64,000 nucleotides of DNA from an uncultured Lentimicrobiaceae bacterium (GTDB lineage Bacteria > Bacteroidota > Bacteroidia > Bacteroidales > F082): the NCBI GenBank assembly GCA_964567945.1, contig CAZMOS010000002.1, forward strand, positions 6,664-70,663, in the 5' to 3' direction. The notes beneath the pieces were generated by a model that searched no databases, had not been told where the DNA came from, and saw nothing but the letters and a program-made list of their open reading frames with translations. The position numbers and the translations under genes are program-made. Position 1 is the stretch's first letter. Each line of letters opens with the position of its first letter. This document shows, one piece after another, positions 24,115-48,750 of this stretch.

Positions 24115-25452
24115 ATGCCGAGAAGAAGAAAACGTGATCTGATCATCAAGGGGTTCTCAAAACTCCTGAAGGAAGACAAGCTTAAGATTGTCGCCGAGCT
24201 GATGGATAAGCAGGTGGAAAGTATTGAGCTGATGAAAAGCTTTTGGCATACCGACCATAAAGTTCAGAAAATATTTGATGAATTCAGCGAAAACACAATT
24301 TCCAATTTTTATATTCCTTATGGTGTCACTCCTAATGTGTTGATCAACGGTAAAGCCTATCTCGTTCCGTTGGTTATCGAAGAAAGTTCGGTTGTTGCCG
24401 CCGCTTCTTCCAGCGCCAAATTCTGGTCCGAACACGGTGGGTTTCACTCCAACGTTGTGGATGTGATCAAAATCGGACAAGTCCATTTTATCTGGAAGGG
24501 TGACAAAGAAAAACTGTTGTCGGTATTTAACGAACTAACCGCTGCCCTCCGGAGGGCTACGGCCCACATTACCGCAAATATGGAAAAACGCGGTGGCGGC
24601 ATCCTGGATTTTGAACTGGTTGATTTGACCGACAAAATTGATGATTATTATCAGATCAAAGTTTCTTTCAATACCGTGGATTCCATGGGTGCCAATTTTA
24701 TCAATTCGTGCCTTGAAGAATTTGCCGGTGAACTAAAATCATTTTTCAGGAATCATCCTGTTTTTACCGGTAACGAAAAAGAATGCCTTGTTGTCATGTC
24801 TATCTTATCGAACTACACGCCGGATTGCCTGGTGAGGACATGGGTGGAATGTAACATTGAAGAATTGAACGAAATTGACAATGACCTTTCAGGAGAAGAG
24901 TTTGCCGAAAAGTTCAGGATGGCTGTAAAAATTGCAGAAGTGGATGAATACCGGGCCGCAACACACAACAAAGGTATTTTTAACGGTATTGATGCCGTGG
25001 CTATTGCTACAGGGAATGATTTCAGGGCCATAGAAGCGGCAGGGCATACCTACGCCTCGCGAACCGGAAAATACAAAAGTCTTTCCACCGTGGAAATCAA
25101 AGACGGGAGATTTAAGTTTTTGCTTGAACTGCCCCTGGCCATGGGAACCGTTGGCGGGCTGACCAATTTGCACCCGCTGGCAAAAAAATCACTGGAAATG
25201 CTGGGGAACCCTTCTGCGAAAAAATTAATGATGATTGCCTCGGCTGTCGGCCTGGCCAACAATTTTGCTGCAGTTAAGTCATTAGTGACCAAAGGAATCC
25301 AAATAGGGCACATGAAAATGCACCTTTTTAATATCCTGAATCACCTTCAGGCCAACGACGAAGAAAAGAAAAAAGCGGAAGAATATTTTCTCGGGCACAA
25401 AATTTCTTTTGCCAATGTGAACGATTATATTTCCAAACTCCGAAAACCTTGA
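24115..25452 (+). CDS. Hydroxymethylglutaryl-CoA reductase, class II
   Basis: Motifs ENTISNFYIPYGV..NVLINGKAYLVPLVIEESSVVAAASSSAKF, DSMGANFINS, and GTVGG near the C-terminus. Confidence 0.9.
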   Translation: MPRRRKRDLIIKGFSKLLKEDKLKIVAELMDKQVESIELMKSFWHTDHKVQKIFDEFSENTISNFYIPYGVTPNVLINGKAYLVPLVIEESSVVAAASSSAKFWSEHGGFHSNVVDVIKIGQVHFIWKGDKEKLLSVFNELTAALRRATAHITANMEKRGGGILDFELVDLTDKIDDYYQIKVSFNTVDSMGANFINSCLEEFAGELKSFFRNHPVFTGNEKECLVVMSILSNYTPDCLVRTWVECNIEELNEIDNDLSGEEFAEKFRMAVKIAEVDEYRAATHNKGIFNGIDAVAIATGNDFRAIEAAGHTYASRTGKYKSLSTVEIKDGRFKFLLELPLAMGTVGGLTNLHPLAKKSLEMLGNPSAKKLMMIASAVGLANNFAAVKSLVTKGIQIGHMKMHLFNILNHLQANDEEKKKAEEYFLGHKISFANVNDYISKLRKP

Positions 25453-26372
25453 CGACACGAAAAAGTTGGTATTCATCAGGAAAACTCCTGATCACGGGAG
25501 AATATCTTGTCCTTCACGGGGCAAAGGCATTGGCATTTCCGCTTAAAACAGGGCAACATCTTACCGTTTCGGAAAACAAAGAAAAAAAGCTGCACTGGCG
25601 TGCCATCGAACCCGAAGGCCTGTGGTTTCAGTGTATTTTCAACCTGCCTGATCTGGAAATAACGTATTCGCCGGAAAAGGAATCCTGCGAAAAACTGAAA
25701 AACATCCTGCTGGCAGCCCGTGCATTGAATCCTGATTTTTTGAAGAACGGGGAAAATGGTTTTGAAGTGGATACCATTCTGGAGTTTGACCCTGATTACG
25801 GCTTCGGTTCCAGTTCAACATTGCTCAACAACCTGGCCGGGTGGGCAGGTGTTGACCCTTTCAAACTCCAACAACTGACTTTTGAAGGATCAGGATATGA
25901 TATTGCCTGCGCTTCGGCAAGAAAACCGCTTATCTATCAACTCGTAAACCACCGGCCGGTAGTTACCGAAGTGGATTTCTTTCCTCCTTTTAAGAATAAC
26001 CTGTACTTTGTGTATTCGGGTCGCAAACAACGAACTTCTGAAAGTCTTCAGGAATTCAAAAAGTCCTCATTTGATCAAAACGATATTGATGCCATCAGCA
26101 ACATTACTGAAAGTATCCTTTTTACCAAAAGTTTGAATGAGTTTGAATCTTTATTGGATGAGCACGAAAACCGGATGTCGAAAATCCTGAACCTGCCCAA
26201 AGCCAAAGACCGTCTCTTTCCGGATCATCAAGGTGTGGTGAAATCCCTCGGCGCATGGGGCGGCGATTTTATGCTGATGACTTTCCACAACGAACCGGCT
26301 GAAGCGAAAAGATACCTGAAACATAAAGGATTTGAAGTTTTTTACCGGTTTGAAGAGATCGTGCATAAATAA
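25449..26372 (+). CDS. GYDIA-family GHMP kinase (mevalonate-pathway kinase-like)
   Basis: GKLLITGEYLVLHGAKALAFP, a GFGSSST phosphate-binding loop and the literal GSGYDIACA motif. There is a 4-nt overlap with the HMG-CoA reductase gene. Confidence 0.85.
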   Translation: MTTRKSWYSSGKLLITGEYLVLHGAKALAFPLKTGQHLTVSENKEKKLHWRAIEPEGLWFQCIFNLPDLEITYSPEKESCEKLKNILLAARALNPDFLKNGENGFEVDTILEFDPDYGFGSSSTLLNNLAGWAGVDPFKLQQLTFEGSGYDIACASARKPLIYQLVNHRPVVTEVDFFPPFKNNLYFVYSGRKQRTSESLQEFKKSSFDQNDIDAISNITESILFTKSLNEFESLLDEHENRMSKILNLPKAKDRLFPDHQGVVKSLGAWGGDFMLMTFHNEPAEAKRYLKHKGFEVFYRFEEIVHK

Positions 26373-43039: not shown

Positions 43040-43592
43040 TTGTTTTGTCTTTGGAATGATAAAAATACTATTTCCTGCCGCTGGCAGTTTGGTTTATTTG
43101 TATTTTCCTGAATCTTTCGTGCCAACGACTTCAGTCGCCGTAATCGAATCAATCAAAGAGTTGTGAAATACGGCGACTCAAGTCGCCGGTACAGTAGTTT
43201 TACATCAAGATAGAAATCCTCTGAAGAAATAAATTAAGAAGGATTTATATATTTACAGAAATTCTAAATTTCGGAGAATTATAAAATAATCCCGTAAGGA
43301 TAAAATGTCATAGCCAGGGACGTGAGTCCCTGGTAAAAGGGAAAGTGAGATTAAGTTCCGTAGGAACGGTATGTTTTTAACCCTGACCCCACACTCGTAA
43401 ATTTTATTCTTACCTCTCGGATTTAAGACAAGTATTCATCCGAATAACGAATCCCTGTTTTTTTATTGAGCACAGAGAAAAAATATTTTGTTTATCAATT
43501 CACTAAGCATTATTTTTCCGGCTATGAAAGTAACCTTCCGGCCGGGCCGGAAGACTTGAGAGAACAACCACTCACTCACTAATCCTCCATCC

Positions 43593-43668
43593 ACTCTTCC
43601 AGGTCCTGCGGACTCTGGAAGGTTTATCCTGTCTCCCAACACCTTATACCCCTATACCTTTATACCTC
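43593..43668 (+). repeat. Intergenic repeat family D, copy 2
   Basis: ACTCTTCCAGGTCCTGCGGACTCTGGAAGGTTTATCCTGTCTCCCAACACCTTATACCCCTATACCTTTATACCTC has the same orientation as 40251-40308 and lies on the other side of the GH2 gene. Confidence 0.75.
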
Positions 43669-43696
43669 CCCCACTTTCAACATTCATCACTAAACA

Positions 43697-45082
43697 TTAC
43701 TTATACACCTTCTTCACGAACTCCTCCACTTCCGGCACACCGCCCTGGTAAACGAGGTAGCCGTTGTATGGCTCACGCAGGGTGATCTCGTCATTGACGG
43801 GGGTGAGCATCATTTCCTTAACCTTTTGCGGGTCATGGGTTTGTCCGAGTATCCAGCTCAGTTTCACCCAGGCCACTTCGGGCAGCATGTTTCCTGCCGG
43901 GATGATGCCTTTGGCCATCATGTCGCGGCCGGTATCGTAAACGAACATGTGCACATATCCCCAGATGGTCTGCAAAGTCATGTACATGTGAACGCCTTTT
44001 GCCTGTGCCCTTTCTATGGCGGGATACAATTCCTTGTTCACATGTCCCAGACCTGTCCCCACAAAGATGATCCCCCGGTAACCGGCATCAATCATGGCGT
44101 CCAGCACATCGGGCTTCATGCCGGGGTAGTAATAAAGCATGGTCACCTCATCGCTGAAATAAGGTAATATTTTCACATTTTTGTCGCTGCGGCGCCGGTT
44201 GTAATCTTCCTTGATGGGAATGATCTCTTCACGGTTTACGCGTGCCAGGGGCGTATCGCCGATGGTGCGGAAAGTGGAACGGTAGGAAGAGTGCATTTTG
44301 CGTACCCTTGTCCCTTTGTGCAGCAAACCGTATTTATCCGAAGTGGGCCCGAACATACAGACCATCACTTCGGCAATGTCGGAATGTCCGGAGGCTTTCA
44401 TGGCATGCATCAGGTTGAGAGCCGCATCGGAACTGGGCCGGTCGGAAGATCGCTGCGAGCCCACCAGTACTACGGGTACCGGAAGGTTCTGCACCATAAA
44501 TGTAAGTGCTGCCCCGGTATGGTGAAGCGTGTCGGTGCCGTGGCCGATCACAATACCGTCAACCCCTTTTTTGATCTCTTTCCCGATGGCTTTAGCCAGG
44601 GCAATGTATTGTTTCGGCCCCATGTTTTCACTGAAAACAGCAAACACCTTTTCGGTTTCCAGGTTGCAGATGTCAGCCAGCTCGGGCACAGCGCCGTACA
44701 GCTCGCCGGGGGAAAATGCAGGAATAACGGCGCCTGTCCGGTAATCCAGCCGTGAAGCGATCGTGCCTCCGGTCCCGAACAGCTTTACTTTCGGCAGGCC
44801 GGGAGTAACCGGGAATTCCTTCTCCGGGATTTTGTAATTGGCTTTTTTGTAGCCGGTTTCTTTCATCCGGATAATGGTTCGTATATCTAGGCCGATATTA
44901 TAACCCGTGATAATTTTGATGACGATATGCTGGTCATCATCATTTTCGGAACGGGGCAGCACGGTGCCTTCAAATGTCCCCCGTGTGGTTTCGGCTTTTA
45001 GCTGCCCCCATACCCGCACTTTGTATTTTTTCAACACTTCAAGGGCTTCGCCTTTGTATCCCTGAAAAATATCTTCTGTCAT
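43697..45082 (-). CDS. gatD: Glu-tRNA(Gln) amidotransferase subunit D, archaeal type (asparaginase-like)
   Basis: The N-terminal GatD-specific domain reads YKGEALEVLKKY...GTFEGTVLPRSENDDDQHIVIKIITGYNIGLDI. The type-I asparaginase core has GTGGTIASRLDYRTGAV, GHGTDTLHHTGAAL and SQRSSDRPSSDAALNL. The C-terminal domain has GTGLGHV and MLPEVAWVKLSWILGQT. It lies 2 nt downstream of gatE. Confidence 0.88.
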   Translation of the reverse strand: MTEDIFQGYKGEALEVLKKYKVRVWGQLKAETTRGTFEGTVLPRSENDDDQHIVIKIITGYNIGLDIRTIIRMKETGYKKANYKIPEKEFPVTPGLPKVKLFGTGGTIASRLDYRTGAVIPAFSPGELYGAVPELADICNLETEKVFAVFSENMGPKQYIALAKAIGKEIKKGVDGIVIGHGTDTLHHTGAALTFMVQNLPVPVVLVGSQRSSDRPSSDAALNLMHAMKASGHSDIAEVMVCMFGPTSDKYGLLHKGTRVRKMHSSYRSTFRTIGDTPLARVNREEIIPIKEDYNRRRSDKNVKILPYFSDEVTMLYYYPGMKPDVLDAMIDAGYRGIIFVGTGLGHVNKELYPAIERAQAKGVHMYMTLQTIWGYVHMFVYDTGRDMMAKGIIPAGNMLPEVAWVKLSWILGQTHDPQKVKEMMLTPVNDEITLREPYNGYLVYQGGVPEVEEFVKKVYK

Positions 45083-45084
45083 GG

Positions 45085-47031
45085 TTATATTTTATTGCTT
45101 AATTCCGTCAAATTCATATTGCCGATGGCAACACTTCTCAATTGTCCCATCACCCAGTTCTTCCGTTCAGTCTCTCCTCCTTTTTTGTGGTTATTTCCAA
45201 ACTTTTCATTCAAAACCTGAATCTGATCAAGTATGGTTTCAGGACTTACCCGTTTAAACTTTATCGAGTTGAGAATGGACTCGAAATCCATTTTTGCATT
45301 TTGCATCACAACGGGAAGCATGTTTCCAGCCAGGTTAAAATCCAGGTTTTCTTTTTTCAGAAAAGCAAGCATGTGATACAATATCGAATATTTGAAATCC
45401 TCTGCGCAGCATACTTTGTTCTCAACCGATTTCAAAGTATGACCGAAAAAAGTCCCCACAAATTTGGGATCAATATCCAGTTCTTCGATGATCCGTGATA
45501 TAAGGCCAAAGTGATCTTTTGAAAAGATATAGGTATAGGTATCTTCGGGTATCCCCCATTTTTTCAGCTTTTTATATCTGATGATAATGTCTTCCGGCAG
45601 ATTTTTTTTCAGCTTTTCAATGTCTTCGTCATCCAGCGGAATGGGCGCCGAATCTGTATCGGGATACATGCGGTCGGCACCCGGCAAGACCCGCTCAAAA
45701 ATTGTGGTGCCGTCCTCAAAAGATTTCCGCGTTTCATTGGGAATTCCCTCAAGGGCCATCCGGCATCTTTCTTCCACCGTTTCAAGGGCTACGGGAATAT
45801 CTCCGGCAGGGCCGGTAATGATCACCTGTGCGTCATTATCCTGTGCCCCCAGCAATTCCCTGATCTGTTTCCATTGTTCCTCCGAAACAACCGGTTCAAA
45901 CATTTCGGAATGCAACATGTTGGGGTGCTCAATGCAGGCAATCACCTTCAGGCGGACTGCAATTTCATCGGCAAACATTTTTCCCGGCTGGGTAAACCAT
46001 GACAGAGCGTCTTTAAAATCAGGCAGGTTCACAGCTACAAGTTTTTCGGCATGTTCCGGAAGTTTAACACCTTTCAGTATCCGTTTTCCGAGTTCAACCG
46101 AACTGATCTTCCAGTTGTCCGGTTTATTTATCCGTTTTTTTAACTCATCCCGTAAGAGCAAGAGCGACCATTGCCTGAAAGCTTCATTGTGTGTCAGTTT
46201 CTGGATCCATTTGGTATGTGCCACACCTTTGATCTCCACCCTGGAGCCGCCCCGGCAACTGACATTCACATCCTGGCGTCCAGCTCCCATACCCGTCCGT
46301 ACTTTGCCGGTACTCCGGTTCAGGAAACGGATGTAATCACAAGTGTCTCTTACTTCATGAGGATTCAAACAATCAGGGTAAGTTACCGTTTCGATGAGCG
46401 GCATACCCAGGCGGTCGGTTTTATAAACACGCGTATGCCCCACATCCGAAATCTCGCGGCACGAATCTTCTTCAATGCTCAACTGGATAAGCCGTATTTT
46501 TTTGTACGGCAGTTCTATCTCGCCTTCCACACCCAGGATAGCCGTACGCTGAAATCCCGTAGGGATACTCCCGTCAAGATACTGCTTGCGGGTGATGTGA
46601 ACTTCCCCCACAATATTCAATTTCGATAATAGTGATATCTCCAGTGCAATCTCCAGCGCGTCCCTGTTCATGGGAAAAGGGGGTGTATCATCTACTTCAT
46701 AAGTACAGGCCGATTGATTTTTTAAGCGGTATATGATCTGTTTCCTGGTCTTGAATTCCATCAAAGCGGTGCCGTCGTATTCACCCAGTTCGCTCAGTGT
46801 CGGACGCATGTGGCGGATGAGTTCGGCATCGTAATCATCATGGTCATTATAAACTCCGGATGGGCAATGACAAAAGAGTTTTTCACGCGTAAGCAACTGC
46901 TGGTGAACTTCCAGCCCCGACATGAATCCGATGCGGTCGTAATCTTTTTGGGTGGCTTCTTTCAACGTGACATATCCTGCTTTCCTGCGGCTTTCTTCAT
47001 AATTGCGTTTCGGATCGAACTTCATTTTCAA
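45085..47031 (-). CDS. gatE: Glu-tRNA(Gln) amidotransferase subunit E, archaeal type
   Basis: The GatB/E cradle domain has GLEVHQQLLTREKLFCHCPS, MRPTLSELG, ACTYEVDDTPPFPMN, TGFQRTAI, RLGMPLIETVTYPD, and GAGRQDVNVS followed a few residues later by GGSRVEIKGV. At 648 aa with an extra inserted domain after the cradle it fits GatE rather than the roughly 480-aa GatB. It is paired with gatD. Confidence 0.85.
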   Translation of the reverse strand: MKMKFDPKRNYEESRRKAGYVTLKEATQKDYDRIGFMSGLEVHQQLLTREKLFCHCPSGVYNDHDDYDAELIRHMRPTLSELGEYDGTALMEFKTRKQIIYRLKNQSACTYEVDDTPPFPMNRDALEIALEISLLSKLNIVGEVHITRKQYLDGSIPTGFQRTAILGVEGEIELPYKKIRLIQLSIEEDSCREISDVGHTRVYKTDRLGMPLIETVTYPDCLNPHEVRDTCDYIRFLNRSTGKVRTGMGAGRQDVNVSCRGGSRVEIKGVAHTKWIQKLTHNEAFRQWSLLLLRDELKKRINKPDNWKISSVELGKRILKGVKLPEHAEKLVAVNLPDFKDALSWFTQPGKMFADEIAVRLKVIACIEHPNMLHSEMFEPVVSEEQWKQIRELLGAQDNDAQVIITGPAGDIPVALETVEERCRMALEGIPNETRKSFEDGTTIFERVLPGADRMYPDTDSAPIPLDDEDIEKLKKNLPEDIIIRYKKLKKWGIPEDTYTYIFSKDHFGLISRIIEELDIDPKFVGTFFGHTLKSVENKVCCAEDFKYSILYHMLAFLKKENLDFNLAGNMLPVVMQNAKMDFESILNSIKFKRVSPETILDQIQVLNEKFGNNHKKGGETERKNWVMGQLRSVAIGNMNLTELSNKI

Positions 47032-47120
47032 TCTGTTTTCTGTTCAAAAAAATAAAGCGCTAATGTAGGAAAGTTAACCAGAACATTTGTCTGCAACAAA
47101 ACGAATGACCTCATTATTTT

Positions 47121-47128
47121 TACATTTG
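47121..47128 (+). promoter_or_regulatory. -7 box TACATTTG
   Basis: TAnnTTTG match 36 nt upstream of the TTG start at 47164. Confidence 0.45.
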
Positions 47129-47163
47129 CAGTATGAAGACAATCTTTTGCAAAGTTTGGAACT

Positions 47164-48750
47164 TTGGGAAAGACAATAAGTTGTTTTCAAAATTGTTTAT
47201 TTGATACATACAACAACAAAGACCGTTTATTGAAATCCGCTGTCCACATAATCGTTGCCGCTTTTATTTTTTTATTTCTCGCCGGCCTGACCACTTCGTT
47301 AAAGGCCCAGCGAAAAACAAAAATATACGTAGAGAAAACGGATGTCCAGCGATACACTAAAAAAATAGGAAAGGAAAGATTGCTCGGCAATGTGATCATA
47401 CGCCAGGGCAATACCCGTTTTTACAGTGACAGCGCTTATCTTGACGATAAAAAAAACAGTTTTGAAGCATTCAGCAATGTCCATATCAATGTGAATGACA
47501 CCATAGATGTCTATGGCAACCGGTTGCATTATAACGGCAATACCCGCATAGCTGAAATCTTCGGCGATGTTAAACTGGTTGACAAAAAAGCCACACTGAC
47601 AACTCCTCATCTGGTTTACAACAGAAATACCAAAATAGCCTTTTACGACCAGGGAGGAACCATTGTCAGCAAAGACAATACGCTGACAAGTAAAAGCGGT
47701 TATTATCAAACAGAAAACAAAACCTTTTATTTCAGAAAAGATGTGGTGCTGGTGAATCCGAGATCGGAAACATATTCTGACACTTTGATTTACAATACCG
47801 TGACGGAAACAGCTTTTTTTATCGGCCCGACAGTCATCAGGGGAAAAGAAAGCACAATTTATACCGAAAAAGGGTGGTACAATACAAAAACGGATTTTTC
47901 AAAACTGACCAAAAGGCCGGTGATCAGCAGTTCACAGCAAACCATCACTGCCGACAGTATCCATTACAATAACCTGACCTCTTTTGGCGAAGCATTTGGC
48001 CGGGTTGAAATACAGGACACATTACACAGTGTCATTATCAGGGGTAAGTTAGGTAAGATGTGGGACAAAAGTGGGGTGTCCTACATCACCGACAGCGCCA
48101 TGGCCATAACCTATGACGACAAAGACAGCATGTTTATTCATGCCGATACCCTGTGGATGTATTTTGACAAAAAACGGCAGGCCAAAAAGATGCTGGCTTA
48201 TTATACTGTCAGATTTTACCGTGATGATCTGCAGGGCCGGTGCGACTCGTTGGCTTACAGCATGAACGATTCAACCATCCGGCTTTATCATGAACCCGTA
48301 TTGTGGTCTGGCGAAAACCAGTTGACATCCGACTCCATTCATGTCGTGGTCTCGGGTAACCAGCTTGACTCTCTGGTGATGTTTAATACGGCTTTTATCG
48401 TTTCCCTCGATTCGCTTGATAAATACAATCAGATCAGGGGGAAAGACATGATCGGTTACTTCCGGAATAACCAATTGTATGAAATTCTTGTTGACGGGAA
48501 CGCCCAAACGCTTTATTACATCCGTGAAGATGACGGAAACCTGCTTGGGATTGACGTGGCCGAATCCAGCTCCATGGTTATCCGGTTAAAGAAAAACGAG
48601 GTAAACATTATCAAATATGTTTCGAGCATCAAAGAAATAACCTACCCTGAAAAAAAACTTCCCTCCGACATGAAGCTGTTAAAAGGTTTTAACTGGAAAG
48701 AAGAGCTGAGGCCGAAAAATAAAATGGATATTTTCAGGAAGACGAAGTGA
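47164..48750 (+). CDS. OstA-like (LptA/LptD N-terminal fold repeats) envelope protein
   Basis: An N-terminal TM anchor is followed by repeated OstA-type beta-jellyroll segments (GNVIIRQGNTRFYSDSAYLDDKKNSFEAFSNVHI...GNRLHYNGNTRIAEIFGDVKLVD...). TTG start as given in the track; no in-frame ATG precedes the anchor. Confidence 0.7.
   Translation: MGKTISCFQNCLFDTYNNKDRLLKSAVHIIVAAFIFLFLAGLTTSLKAQRKTKIYVEKTDVQRYTKKIGKERLLGNVIIRQGNTRFYSDSAYLDDKKNSFEAFSNVHINVNDTIDVYGNRLHYNGNTRIAEIFGDVKLVDKKATLTTPHLVYNRNTKIAFYDQGGTIVSKDNTLTSKSGYYQTENKTFYFRKDVVLVNPRSETYSDTLIYNTVTETAFFIGPTVIRGKESTIYTEKGWYNTKTDFSKLTKRPVISSSQQTITADSIHYNNLTSFGEAFGRVEIQDTLHSVIIRGKLGKMWDKSGVSYITDSAMAITYDDKDSMFIHADTLWMYFDKKRQAKKMLAYYTVRFYRDDLQGRCDSLAYSMNDSTIRLYHEPVLWSGENQLTSDSIHVVVSGNQLDSLVMFNTAFIVSLDSLDKYNQIRGKDMIGYFRNNQLYEILVDGNAQTLYYIREDDGNLLGIDVAESSSMVIRLKKNEVNIIKYVSSIKEITYPEKKLPSDMKLLKGFNWKEELRPKNKMDIFRKTK

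Follow-up and report, generated by a model that had tools for sequence, protein, structure and literature searches.

A GatDE-type amidotransferase operon with altered tRNA-contact elements in an uncultured Bacteroidales lineage

The tRNA-dependent amidotransferase GatDE has been described as exclusive to archaea in papers from 2009 (PMC2811023), 2021 (PMC8007984) and 2022 (PMC9499178), the normal bacterial enzyme for the same job being GatCAB. The archaeal enzyme, represented by the structures from M. thermautotrophicus (PDB 2D6F) and P. abyssi (PDB 1ZQ1), has two subunits: GatE, in which a cradle domain is followed by an AspRS-like insertion, a helical domain and a YqeY-like tail, and GatD, which joins an N-terminal domain to an asparaginase core. 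In converting Glu-tRNA(Gln) to Gln-tRNA(Gln), it recognizes the A1-U72 pair and the D-loop of tRNA-Gln (PMC2330236; PMC9499178) and rejects Asp-tRNA(Asn) through the first base pair and D-loop positions 19/20 (PMC2330236). GatB of GatCAB (S. aureus, 3IP4; Aquifex, 3H0L) is a paralogous cradle/helical/tail protein with the same kinase/transamidase chemistry as GatE, but it lacks the AspRS-like insertion and is paired with an amidase-type GatA plus GatC rather than with an asparaginase-type GatD. Here we analyze a gatE-gatD operon in 64,000 nucleotides (nt) of DNA, hereafter the window, from an uncultured Lentimicrobiaceae bacterium of the Bacteroidota (contig CAZMOS010000002.1, positions 6,664 to 70,663). 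Its products share the two-subunit architecture and the domain order of archaeal GatDE and appear to be a genuine enzyme of this type in another domain of life, with altered tRNA-recognition elements. On balance, we favor the view that they form a functional heterodimeric GatDE-type tRNA-dependent amidotransferase of ancient archaeal origin, adapted at its tRNA site, with Glu-tRNA(Gln) as the likeliest substrate.

Identity of the two subunits

Both genes lie on the minus strand. The first, gatE (45085..47025), encodes the kinase/transamidase subunit E, and gatD (43697..45082) the glutaminase/asparaginase-type subunit D of 461 amino acids (aa). Only 2 nt separate them (45083..45084, minus strand; TAA-CC-ATG, in the context ...AAA ATA TAA CC ATG ACA...), implying co-transcription and probably translational coupling. 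A preliminary description of this DNA had placed two minus-strand open reading frames (ORFs) at these coordinates with this same gap, and had listed the motifs GLEVHQQL...KLFCHC, TGFQRT and RQDVNVS for GatE and TGGTIAS and HGTDT for GatD, all of which are found in the translations. It had also assigned 648 aa to GatE. The reading frame is as described but the start is not: 648 aa are counted from a TTG at 47031, and an in-frame ATG two codons downstream, at 47025, gives a protein of 646 aa that equals database entry P0001 in length and sequence and matches most homologs in length.

Identity was judged by NCBI's curated equivalog cut-offs (the NCBIfam GatE and GatD models). GatE scored 459.5 bits against NF003107, narrowly passing the cut-off of 456, and 412 bits against TIGR00134 (cut-off 319.55), whereas no GatB model, with cut-offs from 315 upwards, gave more than 117 bits (best model, 116.8 against 338). 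Solved structures ranked in the same way, with 298 bits to the archaeal GatE chain 2d6f_C and 73 to the best GatB. An AlphaFold2 model of moderate confidence (shallow alignment; predicted local distance difference test score (pLDDT) 70.8, predicted template-modeling (TM) score 0.69), used for fold assignment only, retrieved GatE chains first in Foldseek (E about 1e-30, TM scores 0.66-0.71), with GatB at 1e-16 or weaker. Of 73 columns with at least 93% conservation among 85 archaeal representatives, the protein retains 66, including the motifs GxExH, RK, DGS, GFQRT, EE, RQDxNxS and YPxTD, and 62 of them are at least 90% conserved across 104 sequences of the bacterial clade described below. The equivalog scores, the cradle residues, an insertion domain and an encoded GatD partner all mark it as GatE. 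It is distinguished from GatB by scores below the GatB cut-offs, by the insertion, by the absence of both the GatB 3-10 turn and the Lys-rich tail motif of GatB, and by grouping with GatE rather than with a GatB outgroup (100/100).

The AspRS-like insertion (45748..46128, minus strand; residues about 300-426, boundaries approximate) aligns continuously with the insertion regions of M. thermautotrophicus and P. abyssi GatE (2d6f_C, 1zq1_C) and is an alpha/beta domain in the AlphaFold2 model. In a local Foldseek comparison it matched bacterial AspRS (6wom_C) over 129 columns (root-mean-square deviation 4.6, probability 0.99), and because this match is to the AspRS insertion domain we conclude that the GatE-specific insertion is present. 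The Pfam GAD model stayed below threshold in this protein, and the HxDE motif of the archaeal insertion domain is not conserved. The YqeY-like tail is also present: the hidden Markov model (HMM) alignment extends to residue 645 and the tail helices have pLDDT values above 90, while the Pfam GatB_Yqey domain found no match.

GatD scored 499.8 bits against TIGR02153 (cut-off 324) and 496.2 bits against NF003217 (cut-off 310), compared with 371.5 bits against the type I asparaginase subfamily model (asnASE_I). Its Pfam domains are GatD_N, Asparaginase and Asparaginase_C; the GatD-specific N-terminal domain (PF18195, GatD_N) reached 40.4 bits against a cut-off of 25.7 and aligned to 2d6f_A from residue 8. 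Among solved structures, 390 bits were obtained to the archaeal GatD chains 2d6f_A and 1zq1_A and 138 to the best asparaginase. Residues T107 (44762-44764), T183 and D184 (44531-44536) and K262 (44297-44299), which span 44297..44764 on the minus strand, align with M. thermautotrophicus T101, T177, D178 and K254, which we take from the mutagenesis literature to be catalytic, and were invariant in 64 sequences (59 bacterial and 5 archaeal). A stand-alone type I L-asparaginase (Thermococcus, PDB 5OT0) shares this Thr/Thr-Asp/Lys set and the fold of the GatD core (residues about 96-434). Unlike that enzyme, however, the window protein carries the PF18195 domain and is strictly coupled to gatE; these two features, together with the equivalog scores and the asparaginase-type catalytic residues, identify it as GatD. 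Both proteins score higher to GatE and GatD than to GatB and asparaginase, and the assignments made in the preliminary description, including the inserted domain of GatE and the N-terminal domain and type I asparaginase core of GatD, therefore stand.

Beyond the bacterial host, the window pair differs from archaeal GatDE in overall similarity, with about 45% identity for GatD and a weaker match for GatE (298 bits against 390), and in gene arrangement: the bacterial gatE and gatD run in the same direction as a coupled E-to-D operon, but of four archaeal contexts inspected three were divergent or unlinked. The ratio of non-synonymous to synonymous substitution (Ka/Ks) was 0.02-0.09 against three relatives, with synonymous sites near saturation, and both genes appear to be functional and strongly constrained.

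Host, distribution and origin

The operon resides among bacterial genes. The content of the window is bacteroidotal, as the preliminary description had reported; it encodes GldK, GldM, RecG, a bacterial-type PheT, GroEL, LptA/LptD-like and MlaD-like proteins, and proteins with type IX secretion system (T9SS) tails. Its view that a binning artefact was unlikely has also been borne out. In independent assemblies of the same organism, from the Joint Genome Institute (JGI) and from Logan, gatE-gatD has the same neighbors: a 47.8-kb JGI contig and a 13-kb Logan contig both hold gatED between bacterial LptD/OstA/MlaD/amidase genes and a GH2 mannosidase, and many independent metagenome-assembled genomes (MAGs) show the same arrangement. 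The JGI assembly does split the window over two contigs, at about 12.4-13.0 kb (Ga0257019_1001238 with the gld genes, Ga0257019_1000209 with gatDE), which the NCBI MAG contig joins, but this join is about 30 kb away from gatDE and leaves the finding unaffected. An archaeal fragment joined to bacterial DNA during assembly or binning, for which this split is the one point in favor, is already refuted, because the independent assemblies place gatE-gatD between the same bacterial genes; we consider its chances negligible.

Searching 5.8 billion proteins yielded at least 8,000 scored candidates, all significant. The best 120 were 66-100% identical to the window protein, and their named sources are 'GatE' from Bacteroidales, Bacteroidetes, Chlorobi or unclassified bacterial MAGs. 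A scan of one genome per GTDB species gave 78 loci, all in MAGs and none from a cultured isolate, and showed the gatE-gatD operon in at least 60 uncultured bacterial genomes. About 50 of these loci carry labels of Bacteroidota lineages (Bacteroidales, Marinilabiliales, Lentimicrobiaceae); among the other labels are Cloacimonadota, KSB1, Bipolaricaulota, Kapaibacteria and Ignavibacteria, as well as Eisenbacteria (one complete chromosome), Fermentibacteria, Gemmatimonadota, Stahlbacteria and Aminicenantes. Wherever the contig extends far enough, gatD almost always comes directly after gatE and on the same strand; of the 61 loci that have the two genes in E-to-D order, 52 show a gap of -11 to +36 nt, most commonly a 4-nt overlap. 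GenBank's pipeline already names such bacterial proteins GatD and GatE. Full-text literature searches found no description of bacterial GatDE, and this large branch is apparently undescribed, probably because cultured isolates are absent from the 78 genome loci. The preliminary description had allowed that the pair might prove a long-known, vertically inherited feature throughout Bacteroidota. Vertical inheritance holds, but the operon is a feature of a subset of uncultured Bacteroidales and not of Bacteroidota generally, and it is known from GenBank labels while the literature searched treats GatDE as archaeal.

Trees were built by neighbor-joining with bootstrap. An unrooted GatE tree took in 189 sequences: that of the window, those of 68 labelled loci, and 120 representing clusters found by an exhaustive HMMER search. 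In it, all bacterial GatE formed one clade (100/100), and nested within it was an inner clade of Bacteroidota, Cloacimonadota, KSB1 and Bipolaricaulota that includes the window (100/100). The most basal member of the bacterial clade sits among genes for Mur ligases, Lnt and RsmH and is for that reason taken to be bacterial itself. Just beyond the clade, the closest sequences carry the labels Heimdallarchaeota, Hodarchaeales, Lokiarchaeum ossiferum, Thorarchaeota and Odinarchaeota. A GatD tree with five archaeal sequences separated bacteria from archaea (200/200) and placed two Heimdall-group sequences on the bacterial side of a euryarchaeal trio (200/200). In both trees the nearest sampled archaeal relatives are Asgard proteins (Heimdallarchaeota TET29438.1, Hodarchaeales MHA2245723.1, Lokiarchaeum ossiferum WP_371806633.1), whose genes stand in archaeal context, with ribosomal protein genes of archaeal type; on the Hodarchaeales contig, gatE and gatD overlap in the same E-to-D arrangement as in the bacterial operons. 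When GatE trees were rooted with three GatB outgroups (100 replicates, plus 60 replicates in each of four settings), archaeal GatE was monophyletic in only 7 of 100 and in 1-4 of 60 replicates. Bacterial GatE was monophyletic in 48-75% of replicates, and in 76-86% of those its sister group contained labelled Asgard sequences. With moderate support, then, the bacterial clade nests within archaeal GatE, nearest to Asgard sequences. We read this as an ancient transfer of GatDE, inferring its direction to be from an archaeon to a bacterium, and tentatively regard the donor as Asgard-like. An inter-domain transfer had been one of two explanations offered in the preliminary description; it gains support, as an ancient rather than a local event, the operon being common to many uncultured bacterial lineages. 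The ancestor of a group of mostly uncultured bacteria would thus have gained the operon long ago from an archaeon, after which it would have been inherited vertically at a fixed chromosomal position in the window's Bacteroidales lineage, with some spread between bacterial phyla.

Two other histories were weighed against an ancient transfer. Bacterial GatDE could be a relic of LUCA (last universal common ancestor), a hypothesis cited in PMC9499178, and it would fit this idea that the bacterial sequences group together with good support, apart from every archaeon sampled, and that their clade spans many phyla. The GatB-rooted trees, in which archaea are so rarely monophyletic and bacteria nest beside Asgard sequences, and the position of the Heimdall-group GatD proteins argue otherwise, as does a patchy bacterial distribution with no cultured isolate among the 78 genome loci, and we hold a LUCA relic to be improbable. 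Less probable still, and in our judgment very unlikely, is a recent horizontal acquisition as part of a mobile island, with the spacer downstream of the operon as its scar. The 657-nt non-coding spacer 3' of gatD, and the small inserted ORFs and restriction-modification cassettes that adjoin gatED in some relatives, are what such an island might leave behind, and gatD has the highest GC (0.520) and third-position GC (0.628) of the 39 genes of the window, about 2.6 standard deviations above the mean. However, gatE has an average GC content and one of the most typical codon usages among the same 39 genes, so that the comparison of composition proposed in the preliminary description shows gatE to be native; because the two genes share one history, the high GC of gatD is a gene-specific effect, which may reflect expression level or amino-acid composition. 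In addition, the upstream neighbors (OstA/LptA-like, MlaD-like, amidase and LptD-like genes) are kept in 14-18 Bacteroidales loci at 64-90% GatE identity, synonymous sites are near saturation even between close relatives, and an integrase, a tRNA attachment site and flanking direct repeats were looked for at the locus without success. The conserved neighborhood and the ordinary composition of gatE therefore indicate that the operon is old and vertically inherited in the window's lineage, and not a recent island. Across phyla, no functionally linked neighbors were conserved in the loci recovered.

A bacterial GatDE clade under strong purifying selection contradicts the status of the enzyme as an archaea-only signature. 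It also bears on reconstructions that place GatDE in LUCA, and adds a candidate case in which genes of a core translation function passed from Asgard archaea into bacteria.

tRNA-contact elements and substrate

Through its 3-10 turn, GatB recognizes the U1-A72 pair found in bacterial tRNA-Gln and tRNA-Asn; in GatE a short, conserved, positively charged loop replaces this turn beside pair 1:72, and a GXXAXGX motif in the GatE tail has a role in telling tRNA-Gln from tRNA-Asn (PMC2811023). The loop of the window protein (46285..46308, minus strand; residues 240-247, GKVRTGMG) contains, at residues 243-244, the position equivalent to the GatB turn in our alignment. Site 244 aligns with S. aureus GatB M184, and since M184 lies within the 3-10 turn the mapping of this site to the 1:72 loop is confirmed. 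Archaea have G-K-V-[KR]-R-G here, with R244 in 96% of sequences. The window has G-K-V-R-T-G: R243 is kept and R244 is replaced by T, as in 96% of the inner bacterial clade. G233, invariant in archaea, is R in the window protein. In the tail-domain region that contacts the tRNA D-loop (45109..45174, minus strand; residues 618-639), the GXXAXGX motif reads GMGAMGP in M. thermautotrophicus, GMGAMGL in P. abyssi and ETERKNW in the window, and it is absent from both bacterial tiers. At the sites of the archaeal tail residues M630, R634, K/R636 and G639 the window has R, I, N and L; the inner clade has the same or similar replacements at these four positions, whereas the outer bacterial clade mostly keeps the archaeal versions. 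Asgard GatE proteins, in contrast to that of the window, keep G233 and R244, and most keep the archaeal tail states. The catalytic machinery is thus untouched, while both tRNA-reading elements, the loop beside pair 1:72 and the D-loop pocket of the tail domain, have been rebuilt in the lineage of the window, which presumably suits them to bacterial tRNA. The locus amounts to a natural experiment in tRNA identity, in which an enzyme that co-evolved with an archaeal A1-U72 tRNA-Gln now works among U1-A72 tRNA-Gln and tRNA-Asn, and its changes sit where the tRNA is read.

Judged from its solved archaeal homolog, GatD would hydrolyze Gln or Asn and release ammonia, which would pass to the cradle domain of GatE; GatE would use ATP to phosphorylate the side-chain carboxyl on a mischarged aminoacyl-tRNA, which it would then amidate. 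That the pair is a working aminoacyl-tRNA amidotransferase, with its chemistry taken from this homology, we consider highly probable. For the substrate, Glu-tRNA(Gln) is the single most likely sole or main candidate, with the case for it about evenly balanced.

This balance owes much to the aminoacyl-tRNA synthetase genes found near gatED. On one contig (L038, 1227-4453), glnS (TIGR00440, 662 bits against 425.8) and a bacterial gltX (513 against 290) lie 5.5-8.7 kb from gatED, and the GatE encoded there has the same derived residues as that of the window. The linkage recurs, at 3-6 kb, in two further assemblies (L092 5140-11722 and L094 7710-11725); a TilS-like gene (PF01171) was also called in these two clusters. 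In one related lineage, represented by three MAGs, GatDE of this kind is thus shown to exist stably beside the direct GlnRS route, and GlnRS is an enzyme that no archaeon has (PMC9499178). Hosts of the archaeal enzyme pair this lack of GlnRS with a non-discriminating GluRS. The related lineage belongs to a candidate phylum and is not Bacteroidales, as the closest relatives of its GlnRS are in Edwardsbacteria, TA06 and Planctomycetota MAGs. The GluRS linked to gatE in L038 and L047 has Arg at the position of T. thermophilus R358, a discriminating-type signature, and this determinant is only suggestive, the R358 rule being phylum-dependent (PMC3927822). In 1.29 Mb of flanking sequence, glnS and gltX together occurred only in L038, with gltX in L047; the same flanks held no gatB and no amidase-signature ORF, an absence that means nothing at about 14 kb per genome. 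No tRNA-Gln gene was found in the window or the 78 loci, and extension of the window contig through its edge proteins gained about 8 kb with no translation genes there.

Several of these observations count against an archaeal-derived enzyme dedicated to Glu-tRNA(Gln). On the side of origin, the phylogenies are neighbor-joining only and support for the Asgard sister group is moderate. On the side of function, GlnRS and GluRS occur on the gatED contig in the three MAGs, where GatDE is therefore not needed as the sole route to Gln-tRNA(Gln); by the R358 rule the GluRS of L038 and L047 would not make Glu-tRNA(Gln); the tail has lost GXXAXGX, a motif implicated in the exclusion of tRNA-Asn; and most sequenced Bacteroidetes use GlnRS and lack GatCAB, 12 of 14 genomes surveyed having GlnRS, one GluRS and no GatCAB (PMC3927822). 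The coexistence with GlnRS, the GluRS type and this bacteroidotal norm make a purely canonical role as sole supplier less certain than the family assignment suggests.

The preliminary description had named, as its second explanation, a recruited paralog with a different tRNA or amide substrate. The part concerning a different tRNA gains weight from the remodelled contact residues and from the coexistence with GlnRS in a related lineage. Inner-clade GatDE may amidate Asp-tRNA(Asn), alone or besides Glu-tRNA(Gln), and so take the role of GatCAB in bacteria that have GlnRS, in tRNA-dependent asparagine synthesis; we regard this as a real but minority possibility. The elements altered by R244T, G233R, loss of GXXAXGX, M630R, R634I, K636N and G639L are those with which archaeal GatDE excludes tRNA-Asn, which is why a switch or extension to Asp-tRNA(Asn) deserves weight, and in some Bacteroidetes GatCAB is retained alongside GlnRS and AsnRS, apparently as a means of making Asn (PMC4206432). 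But the same remodelling is equally explained by adaptation from an A1-U72 to a bacterial U1-A72 tRNA-Gln, the lineage with linked GlnRS lies outside Bacteroidales, asnS, aspS and asn genes are not syntenic in the loci compared, and the GatE insertion domain, which has been modelled to clash with a non-discriminating AspRS (PMC2330236), is kept. In its fullest form, the proposal would be that after an Asgard-like transfer the GatDE of a sub-clade was re-tooled and, in hosts with GlnRS, acts on different or broader mischarged tRNAs, most plausibly Asp-tRNA(Asn); we consider this no more than a one-in-several prospect. If true, it would constitute a replacement of GatCAB in tRNA-dependent Asn synthesis and a previously unknown third route to amide aminoacyl-tRNA in Bacteria. 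A function away from tRNA altogether, as an asparaginase/glutaminase coupled to a kinase acting on another carboxylate substrate, might be suspected from the changed tail residues that contact the tRNA D-loop in archaeal GatE and from the failure of Pfam GatB_Yqey to detect the tail. Yet the full-length HMM alignment takes in that tail, the structure model shows the tail and helical domains, with good confidence, as bundles of helices, all archaeal-invariant residues of the cradle that binds the CCA end and the aminoacyl group are kept, and GatD and GatE remain strictly coupled, so that we give this idea very little credence. An amidotransferase acting chiefly on Glu-tRNA(Gln) remains the interpretation we prefer; what the enzyme is for in hosts with GlnRS affects how Gln- and Asn-tRNA pathways are inferred from MAGs.

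Variants of the locus and flanking features

Upstream, gatE is separated from a divergent LptA/OstA-like gene (47164-48750, plus strand) by 138 nt (47026..47163) that presumably hold the operon promoter. A sigma-70-type consensus scan of this region, with a consensus that does not cover Bacteroidota promoters, found one weak site (9/12), and promoter and terminator scans gave sites no commoner than in shuffled sequence.

The exceptions to E-to-D coupling look secondary. Gene order is D-E in one locus (L071). In two others (L004, 11942-12637; L005, 11942-12607) an ORF of 136-138 aa (MKRKIIPYN...), flanked by direct repeats of 35-48 nt, lies between gatE and gatD and splits the operon. A type II restriction-modification cassette, with a TdeIII-type endonuclease and a methylase, occupies the place of gatD in L047 (11983-14153), where gatD is missing within 10 kb. 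Another type II cassette, with a HinfI-type endonuclease and a methylase, lies right beside the operon genes in L086 (12230-14609). The gatE-gatD pair of a 6.2-kb contig labelled 'uncultured archaeon' (L074, CAYSUX010000176.1) groups within the bacterial clade; the neighboring genes are uninformative and the contig is too short to classify, so that it is either misbinned or a back-transfer.

In four loci, an identical tRNA-Glu(UUC) gene lies 0.3-0.9 kb 3' of gatD, on the opposite strand (L026 5452-5524, L028 13844-13916, L041 14845-14917, L056 14803-14877). Its first pair, read from the acceptor stem, is G1-U72 and not G1-C72. The gene is an ordinary tRNA-Glu whose position reflects lineage synteny. 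In three of these loci, all Bacteroidales (L026, L041, L056), a class II ('degradative'-type) HMG-CoA reductase gene (TIGR00532, 266 bits) and an overlapping next ORF also lie just 3' of gatD and the tRNA-Glu gene; in the window the same two ORFs are at 24115-26372, which suggests that the window's lineage has mevalonate-pathway genes.

The non-coding spacer 3' of gatD (43040..43696, 657 nt) had been called a repeat-filled stretch of 650 bp. The spacer is real, but it is not filled with repeats: it contains only short independent hairpins, two families of direct repeats (15-16 nt, two copies each) and five pairs of inverted repeats. Relatives show nothing similar in the equivalent region, and a mobile-element scar or a repeat array was rejected on the repeat content and on this comparison. 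One match to the Acido-Lenti-1 RNA motif (RF01687; 43288-43333, minus strand) reached 43.3 bits against an Rfam gathering score of 37; it is isolated, the motif not being found in eight related loci. Among the string of small stem-loops in the spacer are two near-identical palindromic hairpins, CGACTTCAGTCGCCG and CGACTCAAGTCGCCG, 48 nt apart at 43119-43192 of the window.

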